From: Lingula anatina
Lineage: Eukaryota > Animalia > Brachiopoda
Length of the DNA stretch: 64,000 nt
Direction of reading: 5' to 3'
NCBI GenBank assembly: GCA_051362555.1
Contig: CM120647.1
Span: 8,928,001 to 8,992,000, forward strand
Each line of letters opens with the position of its first letter. The stretch's first letter is position 1. Positions 1 to 27,422 of the stretch are shown piece after piece. Made by a program: the position numbers and the translations under genes. The notes under the pieces were generated by a model that was not told where the DNA came from, searched no databases, and worked only from the letters and a program-made list of their open reading frames with translations.

Positions 1-365
1 GGGGGTAGTAGCTCCGAGTATTCTAGACCAGTGACAACGCCACGTCTGTCGCACTGGGTCTGATGAAAATCTGAAATTTGGCCGATAGGAAGTCAAAATA
101 TTTTGCGCGAGTGACTTTTTTCAAGTTTGCGACAAATTAAAAGAGCTTTTGGATTCTTAAATGTCTGGACTAAGAGTTTCATTGAATAAGTTGTAAATAG
201 AAAACAAATGTCTACAAAGTTTCATGACAAGAACAAAAGTGCTGTCATTTGCTACCAGTAATACCTGGATTGCTCCATTTTAATCCTTTTCGTCTAAAAG
301 TAAAGACTAACTTAAAATACTTTTTTTCAAGGGACCCAGTGATCTGAATGAGTAGCAATGAGTAC

Positions 366-520
366 CTGTGCCATGTTGACTGAGGAGTAAGACTTCATGT
401 CATCTTCTGTGCTGTTCCAAGGCAAACCCAGCACTGTCAGGTCGCTGTACTTCTTGCTGTCCAGCCGCTTTGTTTTCACGTTGCGATTTTTCAGGGTCTC
501 ATCTCCTTTTCCTTTGTTCT
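366..520 (-). pseudogene. TARDBP: TDP-43 exon-3-like fragment (bipartite NLS + N-terminal part of RRM1), copy 1
   Basis: ENKGKGDETLKNRNVKTKRLDSKKYSDLTVLGLPWNSTEDDMKSYSSVNMAQ aligns with human [55 protein letters not shown]. Phase-1 acceptor (ttttag|AG) and phase-0 donor (CAG|gtactc) match the human exon 3 boundaries. The FGE core is deleted. Confidence 0.88.
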
Positions 521-975
521 CTAAAACGGTAACACATTCCAATTATTATTAAGAATGTTAATTGAATTATCAACACTTTGTTGTATCAATATTTCTATTA
601 TTTCCTGTGTAATCAATGACTGCGACATACTAATTATTGTTCGGACAAGTAGATTTTTCAGAATGTATGAATGTATGAATGAATGTATGAATGTATAGTG
701 TTAAGACCATACGATTTTTTCGAAGTTTTCAAAACAGCTTTTGATTTGATTTAGTTTATTATCTTATATCGTAATTCTAAAAATGCCAAGGTCTTAAAAT
801 TTTTAATTTATATTCAAATACAATACAATCCAAATTCATTAAAATTTGTATTCGGACCAGTGAATGCTGATTTAGACCAAAAGATTTTAGGAAAGTTTAG
901 GTCCAATAGCCAGTAAGGCGAAAAGCTTATGGCAAATCATTTAGGTCTATTTCTCACCCCAATAACACGGGTTAC

Positions 976-3790
976 CTTCAAGGGTTTTCCATCTCAGTGA
1001 AACACCACATGGCTTGGACGCTTCCCCGATGCAGCCACCTCGTAGACAAACCATTGCAGGACTCGCTGGACGCTTTTCCGATGCAGCCACCTCGAAGACA
1101 GACCATGGCAGGACTCGCTGGACGCTTCCCCGATGCAGACACTTCGTAGACAGAACATGGCAGGACTCGCTGGACGCTTCCCTGATGCAGCCACCTCGTA
1201 GACAGACCTTGGCAGGACTCGCTGGATGCTTCCCCGATGCAGCCACCTCGTAGACAGACCATGGCAGGACTCGCTGGACGCTTCCCCATTGCAGCCACCT
1301 CATAGACAGGACGTGGCAGGACTCGCTGGCACCAAGGATTGATGGAAGTAGCTGAAGTGTAGATGTGGCTCTCTTTTCCTTGCAGTTGTCAGTGGTAGCT
1401 CTAGTGAGAATCGCCATAATCGAGTTCTGTTAACAGAAATAAAAAATTGGATTAATGACTTTTCATCATATTTCAGTACTCTGCATTCAGGCTTACCCTT
1501 AAGAGTTTATGTTAACAGAAATAAAAACGGATTAATTTCTTTCCTACATATGTCAGCACTCTAGAGTCAGGCTTACCCTTAAGGGTTTTCCATCTCGGTG
1601 AAACAACATATTCCTGGGACGCTTCCCCAATGGAACCACCTCGTAGACAGACCATGGCAGGACTTGCTGGCACTAAGGGTTGATCTAAATGTAGATGTGG
1701 CCCTCTTTTCCTTGCAGTTGTCAATGGGAGCTTTATCGATAATAGCCATAATCTAGTTCTGTTAACAGAAAGAAAAAACGGATTATTGATTTTTCCAACA
1801 TATTTCTTTTAACAGAAAAAAAATGGATTAATGACTTTTCTAGATATGTCAGCACTCTGCAGTCAGGCTTACACTTAAGGGTTTTCTGTTAACAGAAATA
1901 AAAACGGATTAATGACTTTTCCTACCTATGTTAGCACTCTGCAGTCAGGCTTACCTATATGGGTTTTCCATCTCTGTGAAACACCATATGCCTGGGATGC
2001 TTCTCCATTGCAGCCACCTCGTAGACAGACCTTGGCAGGACTCGCTGGACGCTTCCCCGATGCAGCCACCTCGTAGACAGACCATGGCAGGACTTGCTGG
2101 ACGCTTCCCTATTGCAGCCACCTCATAGACAGGACGTGGCAGGACTCGCTGGCACCAAGGGTTGATGGACGTAGCTGAAGTGTAGATGTGGCCCTCTTCT
2201 CCTTGCACTTGTCAGTGGGAGCTCTATCGAAACAGAAAGAAAAAAGAATTAATGACTTTTTCTACCTATGTGTACGCTCTGCAGTCAGGCTTACCTTTAA
2301 AGGTTTTCCATCTCAGGGAAACACCACATGCCGTCGACGCTTCCTCATTGCAACCATCTTGTAGACAGACCATTGCAGGACTAGCTGGACGCTTCCCCGA
2401 TGCAGCCACCTCATTGACAGACCATGGCAGGACTCGCTGGACGCTTCCCCGATGCAGCCACCTCGTAGACAGGACGTGGCAGGACTCGCTGGCACCAAGG
2501 GTTGATGGACGTAGCTGAAGTGTAGATGTGGGTCTCCTTTCCTTGCAGTTGTCAGTGGTCAGTGGTAGCTCTAGTGAGAATCGCCATAATCGAGTTCTGT
2601 TAACAGAAAAAAAAACGGATTATGACTTTTCCTACATATTTCTGTTAACAGAAAGTAAAAAATTAATTAATGACTTTTCCTACATATGTCAGCACTCTTA
2701 AGGGTTTTCTGTTTACAGGAATAAAAACGGATTAGTGACTTTCTTTACCCATGTTAGTACTCTGCAGTCAGTCTTACCTCTGAGGGTTTTCCATCTCAGT
2801 GAATCACCATATGTCTGGAACGCTTTCCCATTATTGTCACCTCGTAGACAGACCATGGCAGGTCACTTTGGCACCAAGGATTACTGTATGTAGATGTGCC
2901 CCTCTTCTCCTTGTAGTTGTCAATGGGCGTTTTACCGAGAATCACCACATTCGAGTTCTGTTAACAGAAAGAAGAAACAGATTAATGACGTTTCCTACAC
3001 ATGTCTGTTAACAGAAATAAAAGCGGATTAATGACTTTTTCTACCCATGTTAGCACTCTGCAGTCAGGCTTACCTTTAAGGGTTTTCCATCTCATTGAAA
3101 CACGATATGCCTGGGACTCTTCCCCAATGGAGCCACCTCGTAGACACAAATCATGGCAGGACTCGCTGGCACTTAGGATTGATCGAAGTAGCTGAATTGT
3201 AGATGTGACCCATTTCTCCTTGTAGTTGTCAGTGGGAGCTCTATCGAGAATCACCTTTATCGAGTTCTGTTAACAGAAAGAAAAACGGCTTAATGACTTT
3301 TCATACAATGTACATATGTCACTACTCTGCACGGATTAATAACTTTTTCTACATATTTCTGTTAACAGTAATAAAAAATGGATTAATGAATTTTCCTCTA
3401 TATGTCAGCATTTTGCATTCAGGCTTACCTTTAAAGGTTTTCTGTTAACAGAAAAAAAAATAACGACTTTTCCTATCTATGTCAGCACTCTGCAGTCAGT
3501 CTTACCTTAATGGGTTTTCCATCTCAGTGAAACACCATATGCCTTGGACGCTTCCCCATTGCAGCCATCTTGTAGACAGACCATGGCAGGACTCGCTGGA
3601 CGCTTCCCTAATGCAGCCACCTCGTAGAGACGGACCTGGCAGGACTCGCTGGCACCAAGGATTGACCGACGTGTAGATGTGGCCCTCTTCTCCTTGCAGT
3701 TGTCAGTGGGAGCTCTATCGAGAATCGCCATAATGGACTTCCGGTAAAAGAAAGAAATACGGATTAATGACTTTGCCTACCTATGTCAGC
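976..3790 (-). repeat. Compound tandem array, copy 1: ~7 exon-like modules, 52-bp internal repeats, ~69-nt intron-like spacers
   Basis: 52-bp unit ggcaggactcgctggacgcttccccgatgcagccacctcgtagacagaccat (e.g. period 1056 to 1108). Recurrent minus-strand donor G|GTAAGC and acceptor TTTTTATTTCTGTTAACAG|. Confidence 0.95.
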
Positions 3791-4117
3791 ACTCTGCTTC
3801 CTGGACCTGGAATAGAAGAAACCTGGAATGCATGGAAATAAATGCAATGACACTACAAAAATAAAGCCCACAACAGCAGAAAGCCGATGACGTATCCTGC
3901 GAAGATTCCTGAGCAACGATTCCTCGTGGAGAGAAGCGAAGGTTTTAGCTGGCCAGCTTAGAGAAACGTCGAATCCACCGTCCAGACGACTCCTGTGAGC
4001 GATGCGTTGACTTGGGATGAGGAAAAGATTCGGAGAAACGTGAGTCCTGTGTCCTTATTGCTTGATACGGGGCGCAGTACATGGCATCCTTCTTGTTGCT
4101 CCAGATCTGTCTGCGTT

Positions 4118-4177
4118 GAATGAACGAAATTTCAAAATTTCGCGCTTTTATACCTTTAGTTGGTATATAGTCACATG
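4118..4177 (-). promoter_or_regulatory. Pol II core promoter (TATAAAA at -31, Inr TCATTC, upstream E-box CATGTGAC), copy 1
   Basis: Minus-strand TATAAAA at 4152-4146 and TCATTC at 4123-4118 with +1 A at 4121, exactly 31 nt from the TATA start. The same spacing holds in all three copies. Confidence 0.72.
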
Positions 4178-5740
4178 GTGGCGTTCCTGGTCAACTTGTT
4201 CATAGGGGGTGGTGTTTGATAGTGATGCGCAAAATTGATGATAATATCTTATTGACATATACATTTTATTTACTATTTTTTATTTTGATTATTCTGTTTA
4301 TCATTTTATTTTAAGATAAGAGTAATAAGTACTAAGCAGTGACTTCGAAATGTACAGGCATATTTGATGACAATTTCTGAGCAACATACCTTCTCCCCAA
4401 AATTATAATGGCCACGATGTCCGTTAAACCGGTACAGGTAGCCGTGAACTTCTCGCAGGCCACTATAGTACGTGCGTATACAAACACTGATCCAAAATGT
4501 GGGTAATGTAATAGGGCGTAGGGTGACTGCATTTTCGAGGCAGCCTGAGGGAGCATGATTGTTTTGATTGCAGTGAATTGTAGTGAGTCAATTGAAAATA
4601 CACTGGACTTCGTGCCTACAGCCACCTCAGTACTCCGTAACACATTTTGTTATCAACTGAGTTTTTATTCTGAGAAATGAAAAACAAGTTATTGTGATTT
4701 TAAGAAACGAAAGAAAGCAGCACTAGGTCAAATGAAAAAAAATCTTTATTTATATATACTAGGCAGTAGAAACAAATGAATATTTTTTGCATATAAAAGG
4801 TCTACTGGTATAGGTAATAATTATAAGCGGGCACCTCTCTTCATGGCTTTGGGTTATCAATACTCTGATGCCAGTAGCATGAGTGGAGAAAAAAAACAAA
4901 AATAAAAATAAATAAGACATTAAGATAAAAATTAAAATTAAATATTTCTGATTTATGATCCCCTTAATACTCAATTGAAAACTGCACTAATACACATTTT
5001 AATATTGTTTTAAATCTGAGTGGTCACTGGCATCCTTTCACATCTCCCTGACGGCCACACAACCTAAGTTGTCGAACACTGAGCTTACATGTTAATAAGT
5101 CAATTGCTTACTATCAATGTTTTTATGGCCAGGCACACAACAGCTCCATTTGTGTGTGTGTGTGTGTGTTTTTTTTTTCAGTGAGGTTGTCTTTGACTCG
5201 ACCCAGCTTGAAAATCGGACTCGAGCCTTGCTTCGCCTGCCACGAGTACACTCACTGTTTCTCCTTATATAGATCCGTTTGATATTTTTAAAAAATCGTT
5301 AAGAATTATCGAGAAAAAAGTTTGTTCAAGTGAAAAGATGTACTGCGATACTCGAGCGTTCATTTTCATAGATATCCCATATAAATAAATAAGTAATAAA
5401 AGTACCTCTGCAATTACAGTAATAAGAGATAACAGACAGTTATAGCTGTTTATATTTTACAGGGTTTGTTGAGAAATTGAGGAAATGTTAACAATGGAGA
5501 GTATTAATGTTATGGATATTGGACATGAGGAGTGCATGTCAATTACCCGGAGTTTCTGAGACAACGAGAAACTTTTCTTTCTGTAAGTTTAAGTAACACT
5601 CCGAGAATCGCAGGTCAGTCAAAACCCTACCATTATCAGGATGCCTGTGCGGTTTTTAACTTTTTTCCCATACTTTCCCAAATTTCGACGTTAACTGGAC
5701 ATGTAGCCATTATTCCAGTCTGAGGACCTCACTGTGGCTG

Positions 5741-5757
5741 TGTGTGTGCGCGTGTGC

Positions 5758-5822
<65 letters not shown>

Positions 5823-5825
5823 CAA

Positions 5826-5881
<56 letters not shown>

Positions 5882-5890
5882 AAGCAAATA

Positions 5891-5924
<34 letters not shown>

Positions 5925-5935
5925 CGTGTGTGTTG
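5741..5935. repeat. Compound (TG)n/(GA)n microsatellite
   Basis: Three TG-then-GA blocks. A shorter paralogous tract lies at 18229-18347. Confidence 0.95.
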
Positions 5936-6671
5936 TGGAAGTACTCTATCAACAAAAGGATTCTACGATGAATCGATTGTAAAAAAAAATAAAAATGAAA
6001 TAAAATAAAAAAAACGCTAATGTGGTGGTGGTGACAGTTACTGTATATCTCCTCATTACAATAAATTAAATCATTTCATGAACATGACAAACTACATACA
6101 TTGTATTGTATTGTAAAACGCTTCTACTATTATTTATTTCTTCTTGTTCACACACTCAAAATATCGATAATTCGAGATTTGTAACGATCACATTAATTGT
6201 AACGTCTCTCTAATAAAGGAAATGACATGTATTTAGTAGATAGCATTTGTAGTAAATGTTGTTGAGTCATAACATTTACGTAATAATTAGGTCTGAAAAT
6301 TTGCATTTTAAATATATAATTCAAGAAATTTGCTGGACCTAAACTTCAGTCTGTGTACAATCATTCCCCAAAGTTTCAGTTATTTTGGTCGCTTTGTCTT
6401 AATGTTGTGTTCTTTCCAAAATATGCTCCAAATGGCCTCCGCGGCACATGAGACACTCACATACGTCCTGCATAAATTGTCAGCTGCTCTAACAGATCAC
6501 TTCCTGTTGATCAGTCTCTCCTGAAATCTGCCAGGCTGAGGAATAATCTGATGTGTGGGGGTGACCCTGTTCTTGCTATATATATATGATACATACAAAT
6601 ATAATTATACATTTAAATAAAATCATTTTAATATGATTTCAATGAAAGGACGATGTACATATGTGCCACCT

Positions 6672-8189
6672 TTATGTAGTTGAGTTGGGGACCGAGCACG
6701 AAATACCGGGCATCGCCTTTGACAGCGAGTCGACCAACGTATTCTTGATAAAGTTGGCAAATTCCTCGTCACATTTCTTCGTAACGACTTTTATGTGGCA
6801 CTTTACAAGGCGTCTCATGGCCCTGGAAAAAAAGAAAACACTGGGGTTAAGATAGGCATATATGATTAATAGGATAACTAAATCCAGGGGCAAACGCAAA
6901 CGATGCTATAATATTACTTGGAGTTTCGACTTCAATTTTATCTTTTATCCAGCTTAAGACTTTCACATCAATACAACATCAATTATCAAAAACGTTGAAC
7001 TGAACCGCAGAATATCAAGAAAAAATGTAGAAATTAAAACCCCCTTTACACTGGACGGCGTACTTTTTGCGTCCTTTGTGCGACCATGAAACTGGCATCG
7101 CTGTGGTCGATGAAAGGAGGCACAAGCATCGCTTTGGTTGCAGAATGAATGCTCTATGGTCGGCCAGTTGGCACGTAAAGTATTTTTTTTTTTACTCTCA
7201 AAAGGGGCCGTGCTACGGGACGCACAAAGGTCGCCGTCCAGTGTAAAGGGGGCTTTAAACAAACATTAACTTACGAACAAACGGATGACTCTGTCGCAGT
7301 ACCCGCCATTGCCTTCCCTATCATCATTCCTAAAAATTCAGTCTTTGGTTTACACCTTCGTTCGGCAGCCATTGTATATCTTTGCATACATTCCTGATTT
7401 GGGAGGGTCACTGTAAAATGGTTAAGATAAAGATTAATTTTTATTTAGGCTATAAAAAATATACAATATCGGGAATAAAATGCTCTGAAAAAGCATCGAT
7501 TTAAAAAAAAATAGAAAATAAAAAAAAAAAACATGAGTTCTGTATGAATTTAAAAGTTTAAAACTGTACTCAAAGGAATGCTACTGAAGGATAAAAGCTA
7601 CATAAAATTGTTTACTACTCTTAAAAGCTTGATAAATACATTCCTTGGACAACCATAGACAACTTAAAAAAAGATGAAGTTAATTTCCCCGCCATTTTGA
7701 AGGGACTCAAAATGTCGTACTAATGGATTCTAGTTCCTTTCCAGGTCTGGAGTAGGCACTGTTATTTCTCTGTTCTTTAAATTGCTTATTTCGCTTGATC
7801 AAATTTGTGAAAACCAATTTCTTGTATAAGTTGGATTTTAATTTCATATTAATGAAAGAATAAATGTTTATTGATGAATGGCGGATATTAGATATAATCA
7901 AGCAGTAACTGCATATGAAGCTGACAGTTACATGTATTTAATACGAGAGGAGGCCAGAAAGTTTTAGGACAAATACCAATACAAAAATAAAAATAAGTTC
8001 TCAACATAACTTCATTAGAAGTGTAAGGAAGCTGTTTTCTCCTTCGAAAGTCAATTTACGGGAGGATTCTCGGGATTTTTTGGCGCCAGGTTTTAACTTG
8101 CTTTGTTAGAGGGCACGAATCGACTTCTTATCAAATGTTCTTCTCAGCAATGTAGCGTCCATTAGGGGCCATTACTATGTACATTATTT

Positions 8190-8226
<37 letters not shown>

Positions 8227-8528
8227 GGTCCCATTGGGGGGGGGGGGGGGGAAGGTAGTGATCACAGTTCCAAGATATAGAATCTACATTCACAAATCAC
8301 ATTTAATAAAATTTATTCATACCTTACTGAAAGTGCGCGTCGAAAATCCTGAAAACCACGAATCGCCGTTGTATAGTGATTTCGCTTCACAAAGGGCGGA
8401 GATTAAAAAGCCGAATTCATGAGTAGCGGAAATAGAGTGCTTCACGAATCATGCTAAATAAAATGAGTGTTTCACGCATCTCAGGAAATAAAAGTGACCT
8501 TCACTCGTAACGGAAATAGCAAACGGAC

Positions 8529-8603
<75 letters not shown>

Positions 8604-10100
8604 CTTACAGTTTCTCTCTAGCAGCCCACATGATGCATTAACACTGGATTGCAAGCTCTCTGCCGTCCCTCTGAAAAGCCTAGCAACTTGCGGATCGCAC
8701 GAATCTCTGCTCGCTACCTCTTCGATGCATTCAATAACCCTCGGGTAAATGCTAAAGAAAATAAAAGGAGGAAAAATATAATAATAATGACGATAATATA
8801 CAGACCGGTGTTAAAGGAGTGGTAGTCCTGGGAATGGACGTCCGGGGTCCCATATGATTAGTATAGGTTAGGGTTAGTCAGAGTATTGGGGTTAGTATAT
8901 GGGACGAATGTTACCTATATAAAGTAATGGGTAACGGTCTACGGTCCCAGAGAACTACTATTCCCGTCACACCGGCAAACGGACAGATAGGCTGACAGAC
9001 AGACAGGCAGACAGACAGGGAGAGATAGACAGACACACAGACAAACAAACAGACAGATAGACAATCAAATGTTGTAATAAATAAATAATACTTTAATTTT
9101 TTTAAATCTCTGCTGCTTTTAGATAGGCATACAGTTATATTAGAACCCTCGTTATTAAAAAAAAGTACCAAAATTCCAACACTTACTTGCAGATTTCTTT
9201 CAGGTCTTGAGCTGAGGGCGTATAATTGCCAGGCATCGCTTCCAAGGACATTGCTTTACTTTGGGTATAATCAATGAGATCTTGCATACACCCTTGAAGA
9301 TCTAGAGGGGTGCAAGTTCCTGAACGCTTCACCACTAAAAGGTAACACGGAATAACCAAGGCACCAGCTATTTTATTATTTATTTGATTTCATGACTTCC
9401 AACTCATTCAAGTATTCATCCATCCATATATTTCAATAAAAAATTTATGTTTTTCATGGTGAGATCTTTAATTATCTGATAGCCAATCTCTTGCAATATT
9501 TATTTTGTTTTCGTTAACTGGATTTAGAAGCGTGTGCTTATTTTTATCTTAATGTATAAACATTTTTAGAAAAAAAAATATTTGCACTACCATTTTGGTA
9601 TACTTTCCACTTTTTGGTTGCTATGCTTTTAATAGAATTCTTCTTACTCTCCTTTTTTGTCATTATATATATAGCGTACATATATACGCGTCTATTGGAA
9701 TGTTGCTTAAAAAAGTCTGATGTCGAAAGTTGGTTTTACTCTTGTAACAGGGTTAAATATTTTGCTGGAAATTTTTTTAAAGAAAACAGGTGGAAAAATC
9801 AAGAAATTTTGTCTCAAAAGGAATACACACACTTGGGGTGGAGCCCGTTTGTCGGTCTCTCAGTGGTAGGGAGAATAGAGCCCAAACAATGAGAGACTGT
9901 GTTACAGTCTCTTATAGATCTCGTTTTCCAGAAAACATGCCCTCACTAGCGCTTCGTGATGAGGTTGCAAATCAAAACGCAGTCAGAAATTTATCAAATT
10001 GCGAGAAAACAAAAGAACTTAAACCTCCTTCGGAAAACTTACCCCCAGCGTTGCACAGTGATACCAGAAACGCAAATCCTAAAACAGTAGCGGAGCCCAT
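6672..10100 (-). CDS. Secreted cysteine-rich protein, 211 aa, paralog A (two 6-Cys domains; family unassigned)
   Basis: Exons 10100-10043, 9334-9187, 8751-8609, 7410-7275, 6822-6672. All introns GT-AG with gtaagt donors, phases 1-2-1-2, CDS 636 nt. Protein: MGSATVLGFAFLVSLCNAG (signal peptide) VVKRSGTCTPLDLQGCMQDLIDY...EICNIYPRVIECIEEVASRDSCDP...QECMQRYTMAAERRCKP...SVCSAMRRLVKCHIKVVTKKCDEEF...ISCSVPNSTT*. Confidence 0.9.
7038..7254. mobile_element. MITE, PIF/Harbinger-like, in the last intron of paralog A
   Basis: TIRs ccccctttacactggacggcg / cgccgtccagtgtaaaggggg flanked by TAA/TTA. Also present in unit 2 (19473-19686). Confidence 0.8.
8191..8602. repeat. (GA)n microsatellites (8191-8222 and 8533-8602) and a G-run
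   Basis: Directly visible. The second tract abuts the exon-3 donor of the secreted-protein gene. Confidence 0.9.
8805..8975. mobile_element. Short non-autonomous element with imperfect TIRs and internal ggttagggttag
   Basis: Left end CCGGTGTTAAAGGAGTGGTAGTCCTGGGA. Right end reverse-complements to CCGGTGTGACGGGAATAGTAGTTCTCTGGGA. Confidence 0.55.
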
Positions 10101-10274
10101 GTTGCTCTTGAATTCTATATTCTGCAGGAACGATTTGGATATGGACAAGACCCAATGCTTTTATACCTTTAAACTAATAATGATTATCTCCTCATTAATT
10201 TCCGTTTCACTCAGGGCCACTCATTTGTTATTATAAACGCAATTTGAATTCAATTATCAACAATGATAAATTAA

Positions 10275-10449
10275 AGGGACCGTTCCTAAATATGTTTTTT
10301 ATTTTTGAAGATTCTCGGTTTGTCTCCCATCGTTTTGGTAATAAAGTCATCGTGTATCGGCGTGGAAATATGCTGTGAATACTGCGTCTAAATATGAGAA
10401 TGGAACTCCAAATTTGACGGGTTGACCAAAACAAGTTACAAGGGTCTCT
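10275..10449. mobile_element. TTAA-flanked MITE (Kolobok-like)
   Basis: TTAA|AGGGACC ... GGTCTCT|TTAA. Paralogous copy at 23240-23418. Confidence 0.55.
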
Positions 10450-11752
10450 TTAAATTGCGATTTCATAATATCATCCCTCCATTGAAATATCGATTTAACA
10501 TTCAGTATGAAATATTGACGAGATTGTAATTGAAAAGGAAATAGGCTGAATATTCTGCATGAAACGTCAAGTCGGTACATGTTTAATAAATTGTGAATTT
10601 CCGACCTGGATTACCCATCAGTTTGTGAAAAATATTATAGTTATTAACTGGTTATTTCGATTTCGTCAAAATAATTTCATAATAAATTGGATGTAGAATT
10701 AATTTCGTAAACCACAGTTTAGTCTCAAGGCCAATAGCGGATGGGGGGAAGGGGGCTAGACGAACATTATAAGTTTCTCAGACGGGTAAAGCGCGGGTGG
10801 AATCAAATGTCCAAACTGGCTGTCTTTGTGTGGATGTAAACGGTAATAAGTCTTCTTGAAATATGCAGAATTTTATATTTAAACGGGAATTTTCTACTAA
10901 GAGTAAGAAGTACCCAAAATCATTTTGAAAATGGGCCCTTTGACTTTCAATGTCATCGACCTAATTTCAATCTTTTCATTCGACTGTCTTGTCTATTAAT
11001 GCCTCTCTTAACACAACCATAGCTGATTATGGCGTAAGATCATCTTAGATGTGGTTTGTCAATCGAGTATGCGACAAAATATTAATTTATAATTAATTTA
11101 TTTAATGCTTAATTCGAATCGTTCCATGACTTAAAAGTTCTTTTTTTCTTCTTTTTTTTTGTGTGAGGATCAAGAAAAACGAAGCCCCTCTAGGAAATCC
11201 TGGATCCGCCCCTATATATAAGGTACCCCTTCTTTAACATCAAGAGGTGCTGGATTCTTACATCCACAGCGTGATAGATTTCTTTAAGATAGTCGTTGCT
11301 AGGGGCTCTAATCCGACTAAGGAAAGCCTAGGTATCTGCTCGAGTTACTCCCGGAGAAAAAGGTAACGCAACACCGCAGCTTTATTTCCAAAACCAAAAA
11401 TCAGTTTTATTACCTGGACATTGCCTGGTTTTATGGAAAAAATCTACTTGGCAGAAATCGACAAATCTTAAGTTTTAGTGAGATAAGGAGCAAATGAAAA
11501 GAATTTCGACTAATCGATAATTAAACAAGCCGCGCGCATATGCATGCAACTCTATTAAAATTAATTTGTAAGTCTGGTGATTATTTTGCCATCTGTACAC
11601 TACTTTTAATAAAAAGAAAAAATTAGAAAATATAATTTTATTCAACTTCTAAATACAATAACATTCAATTTCAAAATTACTTTAGTAATCATTAATGAAT
11701 CATGTAAACGCAATGAATCAATAAATGGTAGAACCCAATTCTCTCGGGCCGT

Positions 11753-11801
11753 GGGGAAAAACCCGTCTAAACCCTTCGTGGGGAATGCCGGGAAAGTGCC
11801 C
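11753..11801. promoter_or_regulatory. Cluster of three kappaB-like sites upstream of secreted-protein paralog A
   Basis: GGGGAAAAACCC, GGGGAATGCC and GGGAAAGTGCCC within 49 bp. Identical in unit 2 (~24839-24887). Confidence 0.4.
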
Positions 11802-14117
11802 ACGCCCGGATACTTCAGTCTTTATAACATAATATTGGCACAACGCCTTACAGTTCATAAATATCGTCCCGTTTTAAACAGCATGGTGCAACTGAATGAA
11901 CTTGTTCTCGTGACTACAAACTATGCTCTATATACAGTACAATGGTTGACAAGCTGAAGCACAAGAATTTACCAAAGTGCATGTAATTCTACAGAAAGAG
12001 GTATTGAAAACCAATACACATTCACTGGAGTCTTAACACAATTAAACCGAGACTAATTTTAACTTTATCTAGGGGGTGAAGTCATAAATAAAGTGACTCA
12101 ACCCTTTTACAACTGAGAGCATCCACCAAAACTTGAATATAGTCATTTCTAATAATGATAATAAATATAATACGATTATTACCCAGACATAAACTTGACT
12201 TTGACAAATAACTGGTTTTAAAATAAGTTTCTCAAATGTAATTTTGCCCTGAAATCGCAACTACATGACAGTACCTGCATGATACATATGATAAAGATTA
12301 AAGCAAGCTTGCTTTGGAATATTTCAGGTCTCACATTACACTTTATGGCCGTCCATGTAAATTTCAATATGAATTTTTTGATCCGGAGAAAAGGGTGCAT
12401 ATGTGATGAATTGGATTTATTTGTCAACTATAACCCTTGAGAAAATCATAATATTAGTGATATTAGTAATGTGCACTCCCCTATCTTGAGAGATGCCTGA
12501 ACGCTTCCAGCCATCCCTCATGAGGAGCAGACTGTACAAAAAATATAATGAAATATTTTCTCAAACGTAAAATATTTCATTATAGATTTTGCACAACCTA
12601 TCAATGTAAAATCTCTTCATGTAAAAGCATTTACATGAAGTCGGATTTTACAAAGATGTGAGGGTTAGTTGAGGTTAGTGTGCGGATTATGATCTTCTCA
12701 AACGCTATACTGACGAACAACTCCACATCATCAACAGCACATATTTGAAAAATGACTACATCACTAAGATTGAAATAAAACACAGACGACCATAAGTGGT
12801 GGTGATACCAAAGTTTGAGCGAAAACCCATCTGCATTTAGAATGTGGATAAAGCAACTGGATATTCAATATTAAATTTTAAAACAATTATTATAATCACT
12901 GTAGAAGCAGACTTAAAATTTTCATACAGAACCACAATTCATCTTATTCAATTGATTATTCATGGAATTATAAATGAGCATCCTGAACTTCAGATTTCTC
13001 TTAAGCTATTGACAAAAGACGTTTCACTGTCATAAGTGAAAAAAACTCACTAAATGCAATTGCACTCGACTCATCTGTGACCCATGAACAGCAAAAATTC
13101 TCAATATCCAAAAGACTTGAGTGCATTATTAGGTTGTACCAGTATTCCTCTTACATTCAGTATATCGCTCTTCATTACCATTCCACATTCTCTAATTTTT
13201 TGCAGACAAGCTGTGTCCTTAAAACGAAGACTGCTAGGATGTCCGGTCATCAATGAAAGTGGCTACAGGGGCTCATTGCTAGCGACATATAGTGTTGCAC
13301 TTTTAGGCGAGGATTGGTTTCTGCGTTCGGTCATTATTTCTGGAAAACTGCCCTTTCGTAGCCTACAAATGAAACGTAATGTAAAGTATGAAAAGAAATT
13401 AAAAGCTTCCAGTAATTACAACAAAGATCAGTTTTTACACACCGTTAATACTCGTACTAGTATTTTAATATTTCATAATGCTATGGTTCTGAATATGACT
13501 ACTTTTTATTTTATTTTATTTTAAATTGCTTTTTTTTATTTTACTTCTATAACACAACACAAGAAAATTGCATTATGATTAAAGAAAGTGCGAAGATTCT
13601 TCAATAAAAAAAGTGACTGGAGAATAAGAGCTACAAAGGAGGGCATATGAATCACGAAAACGCCTAAGGATCTAAACAATATAAACAAGTGAAAATACAT
13701 GCTCACCTATACGATGGCCTCTTGGTACCACAACCGCAGCACTTAGGGTGAGGTTGGGAGTTGTAGCTCCGAGTATTCTAGACCAGTGACAACGCCACAT
13801 GTGTTGCACTGGGTCTGATGAAAATCTGAAATTTGGCCGATAGGAAGTCAAAATATTTTGCGCGAGTGATTTTTTTCAAGTTTGTGACAAATTAAAAGAG
13901 CTTTTGGATTCTTAAATGTCTGGACTAAGAATTTCCTTGAATAAGTTGTAAATAGAAAACAAATGTCTACAAAGTTTTATGACAAGAACAAAAGTGCTGT
14001 CATTTGCTACTAGTAATACCTGGATTGCTCCATTTTAATCCTTTTCGTCTAAAAGTAAAGACTAACTTAAAATACTTTTCAAGGGACCCAGTGATCTGAA
14101 TGAGTAGCAATGAGTAC

Positions 14118-14272
14118 CTGTGCCATGTTGACTGAAGAGTAAGACTTCATGTCATCTTCTGTGCTGTTCCAAGGCAAACCCAGCACTATCAGGTCGCTGT
14201 ACTTCTTGCTGTACAGCCGCTTTGTTTTCACGTTGCGATTTTTCAGGGTCTCATCTCCTTTTCCTTTGTTCT
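14118..14272 (-). pseudogene. TARDBP: TDP-43 exon-3-like fragment, copy 2
   Basis: ENKGKGDETLKNRNVKTKRLYSKKYSDLIVLGLPWNSTEDDMKSYSSVNMAQ. SDLIVLGLPW is identical to human TDP-43. 155 nt, same splice sites as copy 1. Confidence 0.88.
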
Positions 14273-14707
14273 CTAAAACGGTAACACATTCCAATTATTA
14301 TTAAGAATGTTAATTGAATTACCAACACTTTGTTGTATCAATATTTCTATTATTTTCTGTGTAATCAATGACTGCGACATACTAATTATTGTTCGGACAA
14401 GTAGATTTTTCAGAATGTATGAATATAGTGTTAAGACCATAAGATTTTTTCGAAGTTTTCAAAACAGCTTTTGATTTGATTTAGTTTTTTTTATGTTATA
14501 TCGTAATTCTAAAAATGCCAAGGTCTTAAAATTTTTAATCTATATTCAAATACAATACAATCCAAATTCATTGAAATTTGTATTCGGACCAGTGAATGCT
14601 GATTTAGACCAAAAGATTTTAGGAAAGTTTAGGTCCAATAGCCAGTAAGGCGAAAACCTTATGGCAAATCATTTAAGTCTATTTCTCACCCCAATAACAC
14701 GGGTTAC

Positions 14708-16290
14708 CTTTAAGGGTTTTCCATCTCAGTGAACGACACATGGCTTCTCCGATGCAGCCACCTCGAAGACAGACCATGGCAGGACTTGCTGAACGCTTCC
14801 CCGATGCAGACACCTCGTAGACAGACCTTGGCAGGACTCGCTGGACGCTTCCCCGATGCAGCCACCTCGTAGACAGACCATGGCAGGACTTGCTGGCACT
14901 AAGGGTTGATCTAAATGTAGATGTGGCCCTCTTTTCCTTGCAGTTGTCAATGGGAACTTTATCGATAATAGCCATAATCTAGTTCTGTTAACAGAAAGAA
15001 AAAAACGGATTATTGATTTTTCCAACATATGTCTTTTAAACAGAAAAAATGGATTAATGACTTTTCTAGATATGTCAGCACTCTGCAGTCAGGCTTACAC
15101 TTAAGGGTATTCTGTTAACAGAAATAAAAACGGATTAATGACTTTTCCTACCTTTGTTAGCACTCTGCAGTCAGGCTTACCTATATGGGTTTTCCATCTC
15201 TGTGAAACACCATATGCCTGGGATGCTTCTCCATTGCAGCCACCTCGTAGACAGACCATGGCAGGACTCGCTGGACGCTTCCCCATTGCAGCCACCTCAT
15301 AGACAGGACGTGGCAGGACTCGCTGACACAAAGGGTTGATGGACGTAGCTGAAGTGTAGATGTGGCCCTCTTCTCCTTGCACTTGTCAGTGGGAGCTCTA
15401 TCGAAACAGAAAGAAAATAGAATTAATGACTTTTTCTACCTATGTGAACACTCTGCAGTCAGGCTTACCTTTAAAGGTTTTCCATCTGAGGGAAACACCA
15501 CATGCCTTGGACGCTTCCTCATTGCAACCATCTTGTAGACGGACCATGACAGGACTCGCTGGACGCTTTCCCCAATGCAGCCATCTCGTAGACAGACCAT
15601 GGCAGGACTCGCTGGACGCTTCCTCATTGCAGCCACCTCATAGACAGGACGTGGCAGGACTCGCTGCCACCATGGATTGATGAACGTAGCTGAAGTGTAG
15701 ATGTGGGTCTCTTCTCCTTGCAGTTGTCAGTGGTAGCTCTAGAGAGAATCGCCATAATCGAGTTCTGTTAACCATCTCGTAGACAGACCAAGGCAGGACT
15801 CGCTGGACACTTCCCCGATGCAGCCACCTCGTTGACACACCATGGCAGGACTCGCTGGACGCTTCCTCATTGCAGCCACCTTATAGACAGGACGTGGCAG
15901 GACTCGCTGTCACCATGGATTGATGAACGTAGCTGAAGTGTAGATGTGGGTCTCTTCTCCTTGCAGTTGCCAGTGGTAGCTCTAGCGAGAATCGCCATAA
16001 TCGAGTTCTGTTAACAGAAAGTAAAAAATTAATTAATGACTTTTCCTACATATGTCAGCACTCTGCACTCAGGCTTACCTTTAAGGGTTTTCTCGCTGGA
16101 CGCTTCCCTAATGCAGCCACCTCGCTGAGACGGACCTGGCAGGACTCGCTGGCACCAAGGATTGACCGACGTGTAGATGTGGCCCTCTTCTCCTTGCAGT
16201 TGTCAGTGGGAGCTCTATCGAGAATCGACATAATGGACTTCTGGTAAAAGAAAGAAAAACGGATTAATAACTTTGCCTACCTATGTCAGC
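14708..16290 (-). repeat. Compound tandem array, copy 2 (~1.6 kb, ~5 modules, some fused by deletion)
   Basis: Same 52-bp unit and exon/intron modules as 976-3790. Confidence 0.95.
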
Positions 16291-16617
16291 ACTCTGCTTC
16301 CTGGACCTGTAATAGAAGAAACCTGGAATGCATGGAAATAAATGCAATGACACTACAAAAATAAAGCCCACAACAGCAGAAAGCCGATGACGTATCCTGC
16401 GAAGATTCCTGAGCGACGATTCCTCGTGGAGAGATGCGAAGGTTTTAGCTGGCCAGCTTAGAGAAATGTCGAATCCACCGTCCAGACGACTCCGATGAGC
16501 GATGCGTCGACTTGGGATGAGGAATAGATTCGGAGAAACGCGAGTCCTGTGTCCTTATTGCTTGATACGGGGCGCAGTAAATGGCATCCTTCTTGTTGCT
16601 CCTGATCTGTCTGCGTA

Positions 16618-16677
16618 GAATGAACGAAATTTCGAAATTCTGCGCTTTTATACCTTTAGTTGGTATATAGTCACATG
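16618..16677 (-). promoter_or_regulatory. TATA+Inr core promoter, copy 2
   Basis: ggTATAAAAgcgcagaatttcgaaatttcgtTCATTC on the minus strand, 31-nt spacing. Confidence 0.72.
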
Positions 16678-18229
16678 GTGGCGTTCCTTGTCAACTTGTT
16701 CATAGGGGTGGTGTTTGATAGTGATGCGCAAAATTGATTATTATATATTATTGACATATACATTTTATTTACTATTTTTCATTTTGATTATTCTGTTTAT
16801 CATTTTATTTTAAGATAAGAGTAATAAGTACTAAGCAGTGACTTCGAAATGTACAGGCATATTTGATGACAATTTCTGAGCAACATACCTTCTCCCCAAA
16901 ATTATAATGGCCATGATGTCCGTTAAACCGGTACAGGTAGTAGTGAACTTCTCGCAGGCCACTATAGTACGTGCGTATACAAACACTGATCCAAAATGTG
17001 GGTAATGTAATAGGGCGTAGGGTGACTGCATTTTCGAGGCAGCCTGAGGGAGCATGATTGTTTTGGTTGCAGTGAATTGTAGTGAGCCAATTGAAAATAC
17101 ACTGGACTTCGTGCCTACAGCCACCTCAGTACTTTGAAACACATTTTTTATCAACTGAGTATTTATTCTGAGAAATGAAAAACAAGTTATTGTTATTTTA
17201 CGAAACGAAAGAAAGCAGCACTAGGTCAAATGAAAAAATCTTGATTTACTTATACTAGGCAGTAGAAACAAATGAATATTTTTTGCATATAAAAGGTCTA
17301 CTGGTATAGGTAATAATTATAAGCGGGCACCTCTCTTCACGGCTTTGGGTTATCAATACTCTGATGCCAGTAGCATGAGTGGAGAAAAAAACAAAAATTA
17401 AAATAAAAAAGACATTAAGATAAAAATTAAATATTTCTGATTTATACGTCTTTATCCCCTTAATACTCAATTGAAAACTGCAATAATACACATTTTAATA
17501 TTGTTTTAAGTCTGAGTGGTCACTGGCATCCTTTCACATCTCCCTGACGACCACACAACGTAAGTTGTCGAACACTGAGCTTACATGTTAATAAGTCAAT
17601 TGCTTACTATCAATGTTTTTATGGCCAGGCACACAACAGCTCCATTTGTGTGTGTGTGTTTTTTTTTTTCAATGAGGTTGTCTTTGACTCGACCCAGCTT
17701 GAAAATCGGACTCGAGCCTTGCTTCGCCTGCCACGAGTACACTCACTGTTTCTCCTTATATAGATCCGTTTGATATTTTTAAAAAATCGTTAAGAATTAT
17801 CGAGAAAAAAGTTCGTTCAAGTGAAAAGATGTACTGCGATACTCGAGCGTTCATTTTCGTAGATATCCCATATAAATAAATAAGTAATAAAAGTGCATCT
17901 GCAATTACAGTAATAAGAGATAACAGACAGTTATAGCTGTTTATATTTTACAAGGTTTGTTGAGAAATTGAGGAAATGTTAACAATGGAGAGTATTAATG
18001 TTATGGATATTGGACATGAGGAGTGCATGTCAATTACCCGGAGTTTCTGAGACAACGAGAAACTTTTATTCTGTAAGTTTAAGTAACACTCCGAGAATCG
18101 CAGGTCAGTCAAAACCCTTCCATTATCAGGATGCCTGTGCGGTTTTTAACTTTTTTTCCCATACTTTCCCAAAATTCGACGTTAACTGGATATGTAGCCA
18201 TTATTTCTGTCTGAGGACCTCACTGTGGC

Positions 18230-18301
<72 letters not shown>

Positions 18302-18986
18302 TGTGTGAGAGAGAGAGAGAAAGAGAGAGAGAGCGCGCGCGTGTGTGTTGTGGAAGTACCTTATCAACAAATGGATTCTACGATGAATCGATTGTAAAAA
18401 AAATAAAAATAAATAAAATAAAATAAAAAACGCTAATGTGGTGGTGGTGACAGTTACTGTATATCTCCTCATTACAATAAATTAAATCATTTCATGAACA
18501 TGACAAACTACATACATTGTATTTTAAAACGCTTCTACTATTATTTATTTCTCCTTGTTCACACACTCAAAATATCGATAATTCGAGATTTGTGACGATC
18601 ACATTAATTGTAACGTCTCTCTAATAAAGGAAATGACATGTATTTAGTAGATAGCATTTGTAGTAAATGTTGTTGAGTCATAACATTTACGTAATAATTA
18701 GGTCTGAAAATTTGCATTTTAAATACATAATTCAAGATATTTGCTGGACCTAAACTTCAGTCTGTGTACGATCATTCCCCAAAGTTTCAGTTATTTTGGT
18801 AGCTTTGTCTTAATGTTGTGTTCTTTCCAAAATATGCTCCAAATGGCCTCCGCGGCACATGAAACACTCACATACGTCCTGCATAAATTGTCAGCTGCTC
18901 TAACAGATCACTTCCTGTTGATCAGTCTCTCCTGAAATCTGCCAGGCTGAGGAATAATCTGATGTGTGGGGATGACCCTGTTCTTG

Positions 18987-18987
<1 letters not shown>

Positions 18988-19027
<40 letters not shown>
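18988..19027. repeat. (TA)n microsatellite
   Basis: Expanded relative to the paralogous site at ~6577. Confidence 0.9.
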
Positions 19028-19030
<3 letters not shown>

Positions 19031-19110
19031 CATACAAATGTAATTATACATTTAAATAATATCATTTTAATATGATTTCAATGAAAGGACAATGTGCATA
19101 TGTGCCACCT

Positions 19111-20947
19111 TTATGTAGTTGAGTTGGGGACCGAGCACGAAATACCGGGCATCGCCTTTGACAGCGAGTCGACCAACGTATTCTTGATAAAGTTGGCAAA
19201 TTCCTCGTCACATTTCTTTGTAACGACTTTTATGTGGCACTTTACAAGGCGTCTCATGGCCCTGAAAAAAAAACACTGGGGTTAAGATAGGCATATGTGA
19301 TTAGCAGGATAGCTAAGTCCAGGGGCAAACGCAAACGATGCTATGATATTACTTGGAGTTTCGACTTCACTTTTATCTTTTTATCTAGCTTAAGACTTTC
19401 ACATCAAAACATCATCAATTATCAAAAACGTTGAACTGAACCGCAGAATATCAAGAATAATGTAGAAATCAAAACCTCCTTTACACTGGGCGGCGTCCTT
19501 TCTGCGTCCTTTGTGCGACCATGAAACTGGCATCGCTGTGGTCGTAGAAAGGAGGCACAAGCATCGCTTCGGTTGCAGAATGAATGCTCTATGGTCGGCC
19601 AGTTGGCACGTAAAGTTCGTTCTTTACTCTCAAAAGGGGCCGTGCTAAGGGACGCACAAAGGACGCCGTCCAGTGTAAAAGGGGCTTTAAACAAACATTA
19701 ACTTACCAACAAACAGAAGACTCTGTCGCAGTACCCGCCATTGCCTTCCCAATCATCATCCCTAAAAATTCAGTCTTTGGTTTACACCGTCGTTCGGCAG
19801 CCATTGTATATCTTCGCATGCATTCATGATTTTGGAGGGTCACTGTTAAATGGTTAAGAAAAAGATTAATTTTTATTTAGCCTATAAAAAATGTACAATA
19901 TCGGGAATAAAATGCTCTGAAAAAGCATCGGTGTAAAAAAATAGAAAATAAAAAAAAAACAGTGCTGTATGAATTAAAAAGTTTAAAACTGTACTCAAAG
20001 GAATGCGACTGAAGGATAAAAGCTACATAAAATCGTTTACTACCCTTAAAAGCTTGATAAATAAATTCCTTGGACAACCATAGACAACTTAAAAAAAAAG
20101 ATGAAGTTAATTTCCCCGCCATTTTGAAGGGACTCAAAATGTCGTATTATTGGATTCTAGTTTCTATTCCAGGTCTGGAGTAGGCACTGTTATTTCGCTG
20201 TTCTCTAAATTGCTTATTTCGCTTGATCTAATTTGTGAAAATCAATTTCTTGTATTAGCTGGATTTAAATTTCATATTAATGATAGAATAAATGTTTGTT
20301 AATGAATGGCGGATATTACATATAGTCAAGCAGTGACTGCAGTGAGGCTGACAGTTAAATGTATTCACTACGAGAGGAGGCCAAAAAGTTTTAGGACAAA
20401 AACTGAAAAAGGGAAGCTTTACTTTTGAAAAAAAAAAAATTGCTCACAGCATATCTTCATCAGAAGTGTAAGGAAGTTGTATTTCCCTTCGAAAATCAAT
20501 TTACGGGAGAATTCTGGGGATGTTTTGGCGCCAGGTCTTAACCTGTTTTGTTTGAGGACACGAATCGAGTTCTTATCAAATGTTCTTTACAGCAATGTAG
20601 CGTCCATTTAGGGACCACAACTATGTAGATTATTGAGACAGAGAGAGGAGGAGGAGGGTCCCATGGGGGGGGGGGGTTGATCACAGTTCCCGGAAATAGA
20701 AGCAACATTCACAAATTACATTAAATAAAATTTATTCATACGTCACTAACAATGCGCGTCGAAGATCCTGAAAACCACGGATCACCGGGTATAATGATTT
20801 CGTTTCACAAATGGCGGAGATTAAAAAGCCTCATTCACAAGTCACGGAAATGGTGTGCTTTATGAATCACGCTAAATGAAATTAACGTTTCACGCATCTC
20901 AGGAAATAAAAAGTGACTTTCACGGGTAACGGAAATAACAAACGGAC

Positions 20948-21003
<56 letters not shown>

Positions 21004-23071
21004 CGACTTACAGTTTCTCTCTTGCTCCCCACATGTTGAATTAATACTGGATTGCAAGCTCTCTGCCGTCCCTCTGAAAAGCCTAGCAACTTCCGGATCG
21101 CACGAATCTCTGCTCGCTACCTCTTCGATACATTCAATAACTCTCGGGTATATGCTAAAAATAGAAGCAAAATAATAATAATAAACAGAGTGGTAGTCCT
21201 AGGAATGGACGTCCGGGGTCCCATATGATTAGTGCAAGTTAGGGTTAGTCAGAGTATTGGGGTTTGTATATGGGACGAATGTCACCCGTATAAAGTAAAG
21301 CCTAGGTCCCAACTACGTTTTGGACGCACGGTTTTTAGGTTCCTTGCGTTCGGCTAGAACGTAGCTTGATCGCACGTAGCGGCTGTTGATCATGTCGAAA
21401 AGTTTCTAAGTGCTGTTTGCGTCCTCCAAAAGTCGCACGATGGACGTGCTCCTCACGCACGAACTCCTTCCCGATTCCTTCCCTGCGATCTAGCTACATC
21501 CTAGACGGACGCAAGGAACCTAAAAACCGTGCGTCCAAAACGTAGTTGGGACCTAGGCTTTAGGGTTAGTCAGAGTATTGGGGTTAGTATATGGGACGAA
21601 TATCACCCGTATAAAGTAAAGGGTAACGGTCTACGGTTCCCAGCGGACAACATAATTCCTGTCATACCGGCAAACGGACAGATAGGCTGACAGACACACG
21701 GACAGACAAACAGACAGATAGACAATCAAATGTAATAAATAAATAATACTTTAATTTTTTTTACATCTCTGCTGCTTTCAGATAGGAATACACTTATATT
21801 AGAACCCTCGTTATTAAAAAAAAAATTAACAAAAAAAGTACAGAAATTCCAACACTTACTTGCAGATTTCTTTCAGGTCTTGAGCTGAGGGCGTATACCT
21901 GCCAGACATCGCTTCCAAGGATAGTCCTTTACTTTGGGCAAAATCAATGAGATGTTGCGTACACCCTTGAAGATCTAGCGGGGAGCAAGTTCCGGAACGC
22001 TTCACCACTAAAAGGTAAAACGGAATAACCAAGGCACCAGCTATTTTATTATTCATTTGATTTCAAGCCTTTATTGACTTCCAACTCATTCAAGTATTCA
22101 TCCATCCATATTTTCAATAATAAATTTATGTTTTTCATGGTGAGATATTTAATTATCAGATTGCTAATTTCTCGCAATATTTATTTCGCTTTCGTTAACT
22201 TAATTTAGAAGCGTGTTCTTAAATGATCTTAATGTATAAACATTTTAGAAAAAAATAATCGCTTTACTATTTTAGTATAATTTCGACCTTTTGGTTGCTA
22301 TGCTTTTAATAATATTCTTCTTCTTCTCCTCCTCCTCTTTTTTTTGTCATTATATAGCGTACATATATCAAGCCCGTAGCCAGGGGGGTTCGGGGGTTCG
22401 AAAGAACCGCCCCTTTTGCTGTGAAAAGGTCCACTCTGGGCAAAATATGATCTAGGTACATAAAGTTTTTATGGGAAAAGGTCCACTTTTTCAGAATAAG
22501 AACCCCCCTTTTGAAATTGGTGGCTACGGGCCTGTATATAGACCTACTGCCAATCAGTGACTTTCGAAATAAAGCACCGTAGACACGGTTCAAATAATGT
22601 ATATTCTCGATGACGATTATCCGGAAAAATACGCGTTATTAGAATATTGCTTAAAAAGACTGATGTCGAGAGTTGGTTTTACCAAGGAGTTATAACAGAC
22701 ACACTCTTGTCACAGGGTTTAATATTTTGCTGGAATATTTTTATAAAGAAAACAGGTGAAAAAACCAAGAAATTTTGTCTCAAAAAGAATATACACACTT
22801 GGGGGTGGAGCCCGTTTGCGGGTTTCTCAATGGTCGGAATGAATAGAGCCCAAAGAACAATGAGAGACTGTGTATTAGTCTCGTATAAATCTTGTTTCCC
22901 AGAAAACGTACCCTCCCTGGCGCTTCGTGATGAGGCTGCAAATTAAAATGAAGTCAGATATTTATAAAAATGCGAGAAAACATACAAACTTTAACCTCCC
23001 TGGGAAAACTTACCCCCAGCGTTGCACAGTGATACCAGAAACGCAAATCCTAAAACAGTAGCGGAGCCCAT
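19111..23071 (-). CDS. Secreted cysteine-rich protein, 211 aa, paralog B
   Basis: Exons 23071-23014, 22007-21860, 21154-21012, 19842-19707, 19261-19111. Exon lengths and splice sites are the same as paralog A, the ORF is intact, there are 19 aa differences and all Cys are kept. Confidence 0.9.
19473..19686. mobile_element. MITE, PIF/Harbinger-like (paralog of 7038-7254)
   Basis: TIR cctttacactgggcggcgtcc / ggacgccgtccagtgtaaagggggct. Confidence 0.75.
21299..21559. mobile_element. MITE with long near-perfect TIRs, specific to unit 2
   Basis: AGCCTAGGTCCCAACTACGTTTTGGACGCACGGTTTTTAGGTTCCTTGCGT and its exact reverse complement at the right end, flanked by TAA/TTA. Absent at the paralogous site ~8925. 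Confidence 0.9.
22369..22534. mobile_element. Dispersed MITE family (CAGGCCCGTAGCC TIR), copy specific to unit 2
   Basis: caagcccgtagcca ... tggctacgggcctg. Absent at ~9685. Related copies in the opposite orientation at ~47398-47566 and ~56337-56498. Confidence 0.8.
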
Positions 23072-26000: not shown

Positions 26001-27271
26001 TCATCTTATTCAATTGAACATTTATGGAATTAAGAATGAGCATCCTTAACTTCGGTGCTCTCTTAAGTTATTGGAATAAAATGTTCCACTGTCATAACTG
26101 AAAAAAACTCACTAAATGCAATTACACCCGACTCGTATCTGTGACCCGTGAAGCGCATAAATTCTCAATATCCAAAAGACTTGAGTACATTATTAGGTTG
26201 TACCAGTATTCCTCTTACATTCAGTATATCGCTCTTCATCATCATTCCACATTCTCTAATTTTTTTGCAGACAAGCTGTGTCCTTAAAACGAAGACTGCT
26301 AGGATGTCCGGTCATCAATGAAAGTGGCTACAGGGGCTCGTTGCTAGCGACATATAGTGTTGAACATTTGCACATTTAGGCGAGGATTGATGGTTTCTGC
26401 GTTCTAGCATTATCTGCTTTATCTGGAAAACTGCCCTGTCGTAGCCTACAAATGAAACGTCAAGTATGAAAAGCAATTGAACGCTTGCAGTAATTGCAAC
26501 AAAGAATATGTATTTCACTGGTATTTACACACCGATAATACTAATACTAGTACTTTGATGTTTCATTATGTTATGGTTCTTAACATGACTACTTTTTATT
26601 TTATTTAATTTTGTTTTATTTTACTTACTTTTATTTTATTTTATTTTCACTTCTATAACACAACACAAGAAAATCACATTATGATTTAGAAGAGTGCTAA
26701 GATTCTACAATAAGAAAGTGACTGAAGAATAAGAGGTATAAAGGAAGGCATATGAATCACACAAACGTCTAACGATCTAAACAATATAAACAAGTAAAAA
26801 TACATGCTCACCTGTACGATGGCCTTTTAGTACCACAACCGCAGCACTTAGGGTGAGGTTGGGGGGTAGCAGCTCCCAGTATTCTAGACCAGTGACAACG
26901 CCACGTGTGTCGCATTTGGACTGATGAAAATCTGAAATTTGGCCGATAGGAAGTCAAATTATTTTGCGCGAGTGATTTTTTTTTTTTTGCAAGTTTGTGA
27001 CAAATTAAAAGAGCTTTTGGATTCTAAAATGTCTGGACTAAGAATTTCCTTGAATAAATTGTAAATAGAAAACAAATGTCTACACTAAGTGACTAGATAA
27101 CGGTTTCCAAAAGGTCTAATTTAAAGTTTTATGAGAAGAACAAAACTGCTATTGTTTGAAACCAATAATATTTGGACTGCTCCATTTTAATCCTTTTCGT
27201 CTAAAATTAAAGACTAACTTAAAATACTTTTTTCAAGGGACCCAGTGATCTGAATGAGTAGCAATGAGTAC

Positions 27272-27422
27272 CCGTGCCATGTTGACTGAGGAGCAAGATC
27301 ATCTGTGCTGTTCCAAGGCAAACCCAGCACTATCAGGTCGCTGTACTTCTTGCTGTCCAGCCGCTTTGTTTTCACGTTGCGAGTTTTCAGGGTCTCATCT
27401 CCTTTTCCTTTTCTTTTGTTCT
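27272..27422 (-). pseudogene. TARDBP: TDP-43 exon-3-like fragment, copy 3 (frameshifted)
   Basis: ENKRKGKGDETLKTRNVKTKRLDSKKYSDLIVLGLPWNSTDD. Retains NKRK as in human TDP-43. It is +6 nt and -10 nt relative to copies 1 and 2. Confidence 0.85.

Follow-up and report, generated by a model that had tools for sequence, protein, structure and literature searches.

Transcribed unprocessed (duplicated) pseudogenes and chimeric part-duplicates form a known class of gene copies, and head-to-tail tandem arrays of exons, each with its own splice sites, are known from Dscam. Tandem exon duplication arrays have also been reported for the arthropod myosin heavy chain gene (PMC2257972). Here we describe a locus of the brachiopod Lingula anatina, contained in a window of 64,000 nt (the whole stretch of DNA analysed), that shares features with both. 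As with the unprocessed pseudogenes, it has the appearance of an intron-bearing part-copy of a gene, in this case TARDBP, with lesions, neutral-looking change, spliced RNA and a tandem cluster; in contrast to them, its first exon is multiplied five to eight times per copy, contains a variable 52-bp minisatellite and is eroded far more than the next exon. As in Dscam and the arthropod myosins, exon copies (here called modules) lie head to tail with splice sites of their own; unlike in those genes, the modules are spliced to each other and not chosen singly, their lengths are not frame-symmetric and they appear free of protein constraint. The reading that we prefer, giving it slightly better than an even chance, is that the locus is a family of partial TARDBP copies that are transcribed and spliced and likely do not encode protein; in them a well-preserved exon 3 is preceded by a tandemly multiplied exon whose head is probably a heavily scrambled exon 2.

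The first 33 kb of the window are three tandem units with a period of ~13 kb (1..32756), the first of which is incomplete and extends beyond the window start. In their unique segments units 1 and 2 diverge by 2–4% and unit 3 by 2–14%, and the duplications lie one within another, with lengths of 52 bp, about 300 bp and 13 kb. Each unit reads on the minus strand in the same order: TATA box and initiator-like element, 5′ region, module array, a GT-AG intron of 435–456 nt, a copy of TARDBP exon 3 and further exons foreign to TARDBP. The promoter predicted from sequence in unit 1 spans 4118..4152 (TATA box at 4152-4146 and initiator-like TCATTC at 4123-4118, 31 nt apart), and both elements recur at 16652 and 31855 (−); the adjoining transcribed 5′ region at 3875..4121, with a depth of 9–32 in RNA runs X1 and X3, is likely the first exon. 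The arrays occupy 976..3740 (seven modules plus short remnants), 14708..16240 (five modules) and 27879..31443 (eight modules), the members of array 1 lying at 3506-3740, 3074-3266, 2778-2957, 2295-2596, ~1955-2240 (which lacks an acceptor), 1577-1758 and 976-1426. Between the last of these and exon 3 is an intron of 455 nt (521..975). The exon-3 copies, found by sequence match, are at 366..520 (residues ~80–136, with a 12-nt deletion near the end), 14118..14272 and 27272..27422 (with a frameshift near the end and an altered donor). Downstream, exon A (13707..13825), without TARDBP coding sequence, is spliced to exon B (13200..13362, with a provisional 3′ end), which was placed by an RNA joint.

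The cluster lies head to head with a multi-exon gene at 35317-62000 (+), presumably FAM21/WASHC2 as judged from its motifs, for which Pfam gives a sub-threshold CAP-ZIP_m match alone (E 0.008); 48 other ORFs of the window had no Pfam match at the curated cut-off. A 14-nt TATA-containing word of the predicted minus-strand promoters at 31855 and 16652 is also present on the plus strand at 33688-33701, facing away from the cluster, and downstream of it is a proline-rich candidate ATG exon at 33972-34066. On the minus strand at ~34626-34700, a short ATG-led stretch with a strong GTAAGT donor could be a first exon facing the cluster. MITE-like inverted repeats lie at 47779-48025 (104-nt arms) and 21296-21562 (79-nt arms), and the segments 14389-14430, 14571-14627 and 4442-4610, matched by unrelated, mostly opposite-strand transcripts, are likely interspersed repeats.

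An initial annotation, made from the sequence alone, had reported about 20 copies of a repeated exon, and we likewise count 20 modules (7+5+8 in units 1–3). These are 82–85% alike, differ among arrays in number and order, and contain 0–7 of the 52-bp units each, 55 in all; a GT donor follows 19 of them and an AG acceptor precedes 15. The annotation gave every module an ATG 9 nt after the acceptor, which is so in 12 of the 20 and not in the others. Its quoted phase-1 donor is exact in 3 of 20 and, given that module lengths fall into all three classes modulo 3, phase 1 holds only relative to the exon-3 frame. Its observation that the last module joins the exon-3 homolog stands for every array, the final module facing the exon-3 copy across a GT-AG intron of 455, 435 or 456 nt. 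The module on which it had focused, the first of unit 1 (3506..3740, −), has two 52-bp units, an ATG at +10 and a GT donor, with GG and not AG at its acceptor. A 24-nt deletion has removed the acceptor and ATG from four modules, and the last module of unit 3 lacks both. Eight remnants (at 3447, 1891, 1514, 15117, 29010, 29383, 30264 and 30790) join the acceptor region to the final dozen or so module bases, and some, having AG and GT, could be micro-exons. At 15764-15790 two modules are fused within one exon, the second acceptor having no pyrimidine tract. The upstream flank of the first module resembles the inter-module introns over about 55 nt, and the last donor diverges from the inner donors after a few bases; we infer that one ancestral exon was copied together with short flanks.

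At the level of sequence, the link of the locus to TARDBP through exon 3 is certain. All three units have a significant exon-3 match, the copy corresponding to TDP-43 residues 80–125 (phmmer, E 1.4e-8) with 75% protein identity to the L. anatina TDP-43 XP_013391411.1 (P0002). The likeness extends over residues ~80–136 and includes the phase-1 acceptor and the start of the next intron: similarity continues past the exon-3 donor, into a stretch that the P0002 model appears to take from the intron, which makes this likely a DNA-level copy and not a retrocopy. Parent-type RNA reads show, among the matches listed, at least 12 differences over 133 nt of exon 3 (~9%), of which 5 are synonymous and 7 non-synonymous, too few to judge selection on exon 3 alone; the alignment to the parent needs one or two gaps. 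The point at which these reads depart from the window sequence coincides exactly with the acceptor of exon 3 and so defines the phase-1 junction of the parent; the same phase-1 intron is found in two of two other invertebrate loci. Six full-length TDP-43 queries (tblastn) recovered exon 3 and no other TARDBP exon in the window. The units fall outside the TDP-43 protein family, which is defined by an N-terminal domain (NTD), two complete RRMs and a Gly-rich tail: they have no recognisable TDP-43_N, the start of the first RRM only, neither second RRM nor Gly-rich tail, and new downstream exons. As for P0002 itself, the RefSeq model seems to read through the exon-3 donor at residues ~137–170, and the second half of the first RRM found in other TDP-43s is missing from it, likely a model or assembly error.

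Raw RNA-read runs were picked by species label, and of the nine listed seven were mapped, X1 in two separate mappings. Reads covered 3490-5140 in all four runs counted (465, 326, 137 and 122 reads in X1, X3, X6 and X8), mostly at 80–95% identity, with only 13 of the 1,050 at 99% or above; the RNA therefore comes from other copies or individuals, and transcription and splicing are shown for the family rather than for these exact units. First mates are almost all on the plus strand in X1, X3 and X6, which indicates minus-strand RNA, as in most stranded libraries. Depth falls upstream of about 4105–4160 in X1 and X3, near the predicted start, with no sharp start among the read ends listed. Splicing is seen from the 5′ region to a module (joint 3740-3874; 4 reads with 2 starts), from module to module (joint 3741-to-3512; 6 and 3 reads, together with 33, 6 and 8 reads whose loose ends read as the start of the next module), from module to exon 3 (8 reads that continue into exon 3 and 7 that give an approximate joint) and from exon A to exon B (joint 13361-13706, ends CT..AC; 4, 8, 0 and 3 reads in X1, X2, X4 and X7, hence in three of four runs). 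Reads containing introns are also present. At 14236, a diagnostic site in exon 3, the window letter occurs in 12 of 47, 4 of 29, 0 of 17 and 1 of 50 reads. The depth in X1 is ~20–32 on exons A and B as well as on the 5′ region, compared with the 12 of 47 exon-3 reads that carry the window letter, and exon 3 is thus likely skipped in, or absent from, many transcripts. Upstream of exon A, at 13796-13804, loose ends (10 and 5 reads) start with a 9-mer like the module tail, a hint of transcripts without exon 3. In X8 the 5′ region has a depth of 0–1.4, and its identity to the 5′ UTR of the parent is accordingly likely below 80%. Among the 24 of 98 matches listed, none was a parent-type loose end on the module.

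The initial annotation had gone further and interpreted the module as a decayed exon 2, which encodes the TDP-43 NTD. The module does sit in the exon-2 slot and carries a weak colinear signal of the Lingula NTD; standard searches go against this interpretation, and decay alone does not fit the divergence figures. Pfam TDP-43_N had no match in nine module frames and four module-derived models (P0002 control, E 4.3e-32), tblastn no module match at E<0.5, and nhmmer with the back-translated NTD no module match (exon-3 control, E 1e-33). The NTD motifs that the annotation listed in order are nine, and no single module has them all, 3506-3740 being without STLQ and YVV. Over the 20 modules the counts are 8 for IELP, 8 for EEG, 9 for STLQ, 7 for LGAS, 18 for PASPAM, 1 for VRLYE, 19 for LH, 8 for WGS and 2 for YVV; EEG, STLQ, PASPAM and YVV do not occur in the Lingula TDP-43 protein. 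We also considered the module as a descendant of exon 3, which looked plausible by eye and was rejected when 145–813 of 1,000 shuffles were as good in all 24 tests; that such an alignment is due to chance is a warning against reading motifs.

For the alignments that follow, back-translated residues 1–79 of P0002 stood in for the exon-2 DNA of the parent. Gap-tolerant alignment gave p values of 0.15–0.76 with strict and 0.002–0.16 with lenient gaps (10 settings, two targets). A pair-HMM, averaged over 12 settings on a grid chosen after lenient gaps were known to help, scored −1.1 bits against these residues, the shuffle mean being −11.4, and the score was equalled by 11 of 4,500 residue shuffles and by 1 of 457 real peptides; the absolute log-odds are about −1 bit, versus 123 for the exon-3 control. 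Along P0002, high scores were confined to windows starting at residues 0–18, and the domain of Lingula ranked highest of the 19 N-terminal domains compared; many of the 19 come from molluscs and are nearly identical, and they do not count as independent tries. The best setting combined few substitutions with many indels, and the best module–NTD alignments need more than ten gaps. The signal is located in the 112-nt module head, against residues about 15–39 (head versus residues 1–45, equalled by 14 of 2,000 shuffles); the 52-bp unit plus tail is not significant against the NTD (162 of 2,000). The two-unit 3′ half of module 3506-3740 was equalled by 24 of 2,000 shuffles. No support was found for the proposed origin of the 52-bp repeat by amplification of NTD coding sequence, the score of the unit alone being equalled by 779 of 2,000 shuffles. 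The last 32 nt of the parent's exon 2, read from RNA, do not match the module tail (610 of 2,000), and the tail compared with a degenerate extra 52-bp unit gave 59 of 2,000. Comparison of the module with 730 stretches of the window, in search of another source, gave a best local score of 33 and nothing clear. Human TARDBP exon 2 begins 12 nt before the ATG. On the alignment evidence the head of the module probably represents TARDBP exon 2 in heavily scrambled form, and the initial annotation, correct on count, position and the TARDBP link, was possibly correct on the head as well.

Several features suggest that the modules might encode protein, and it has to be asked whether this is a young protein-coding gene in which they serve as combinatorial exons for Cys/Ser-rich repeat proteins with the TDP-43 basic linker at their end. 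The last modules of units 1 and 2 have an ATG in the frame of exon 3, and this frame runs through exon 3 without a stop; all sense frames of the consensus unit are open, and four RefSeq Lingula models on four scaffolds, together with one unnamed protein, encode products of this module family. However, an in-frame ATG in two of two cases has a 1-in-9 chance, the last module of unit 3 has no ATG, and all 20 modules as scanned contain stops in at least two frames, with lengths that vary modulo 3. The 78 distinct substitutions in the module heads are spread over the codon positions (27, 28 and 23), their synonymous share is as expected in all three frames, and the heads accordingly show no coding constraint; beyond exon 3, the reading frames differ between copies and models. 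Three weak, repeat-driven protein matches at 28–33% identity were dropped, and protein searches with the module frame for relatives outside the family returned only the Lingula models and the one unnamed same-family protein. We regard this young coding gene as quite unlikely. A functional TARDBP-derived gene in the process of being born, with a scrambled, multiplied NTD exon and a tunable 52-bp repeat, expressed near its parent's level as a regulatory RNA or as a repeat protein keeping the TDP-43 basic linker, is also unlikely. Searches for Rfam families (1-34000) and for tRNAs gave no matches, no stable fold was found, the folds being weaker than those of shuffles (z +2.15 and +2.42), and the module motif was absent from viral contigs. 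The locus, with its parental introns kept, truncated, its heads apparently neutral and its family spliced, fits a transcribed, chimeric, intron-bearing unprocessed TARDBP-derived pseudogene family with tandem exon amplification, and is likely a non-coding relic, odd and functionless.

Where the modules came from is a closer matter, because the divergences conflict with simple descent. The module heads are ~8% from their consensus and exon 3 is ~9% from the parent, which means that the module already had its present form, unlike exon 2, at the time of the exon-3 split; plain decay does not explain this, and descent from exon 2 needs an extra step, either an exon 3 refreshed in an older copy or a burst of indels. 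No such step is needed if the TATA promoter, 5′ exon, modules and exons A and B belong to a transcription unit that is lineage-specific and unrelated, and if one of its introns later took up a segment of TARDBP with exon 3; the likeness to the NTD would then be chance. This explanation, which we take seriously while holding it less probable than not, would also account for the module tail being nearer to an extra 52-bp unit than to the parent's exon end, for the 5′ region being likely less than 80% alike to the parent's 5′ UTR, and for a depth in X1 that is greater on exons A and B and on the 5′ region than on window-type exon 3, with loose ends at exon A of the kind expected from transcripts that skip or lack exon 3; and an equally convincing alignment by eye, that of module and exon 3, did turn out to be chance. 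Yet capture leaves both the alignment signal and the matching position to coincidence: a p of ~0.003 for one hypothesis fixed by position, the first rank of Lingula among 19 domains (many of them close molluscan relatives and not independent), and an ATG near the exon start combined with an AAAG/GT end in the right phase, and no other source for the module has been found, the searches having returned its own family alone. That the triplication and the arrays are assembly artefacts is very improbable: units 1 and 2 are only 2–4% apart in unique segments and a heterozygosity of 1.6% is reported for Lingula (PMC4595640), but unit 3 differs by up to 14%, the arrays differ in module number and order with modules 82–85% alike, and transcripts with several modules are seen independently in gene models and in RNA reads.

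On the preferred reading, that of partial TARDBP copies with a scrambled exon 2, the locus would have begun with a part-duplication of TARDBP at the DNA level. Many small indels would then have scrambled the exon-2 slot before its amplification, either in an older copy that later received a fresh exon 3 from the parent or in a single burst. Unequal crossing-over may next have copied the exon with its flanks, about 55 nt on the acceptor side and 10 nt on the donor side, so that each junction would have formed a new short intron. Slippage would have expanded the 52-bp stretch inside each exon, the whole 13-kb unit would have been triplicated, and the sequence would since have been drifting without selection at the protein level.

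Among bilaterians, gene-family turnover is reported to be highest in Lingula, with a rate of young duplication 2–4-fold faster (PMC4595640), so that a young cluster is to be expected there. A search of literature listings and the openings of abstracts found no description of this locus. The RefSeq genes LOC106175563, LOC106163526, LOC106164805 and LOC106153014 have the same modules with the same module–module or module–exon-3 joints; all four are named 'uncharacterized', their names containing neither the TARDBP link nor the array, and the present findings explain them. Unless the locus proves to have a function, none of this bears on the role of TDP-43 in disease. At face value the locus provides a worked example of how the duplication of an exon with short flanks creates new spliceable exons and introns, here in a TARDBP-derived locus and, if the module head is indeed exon 2, the contrast in erosion between adjacent exons would be the trace of gene conversion or of an indel burst.
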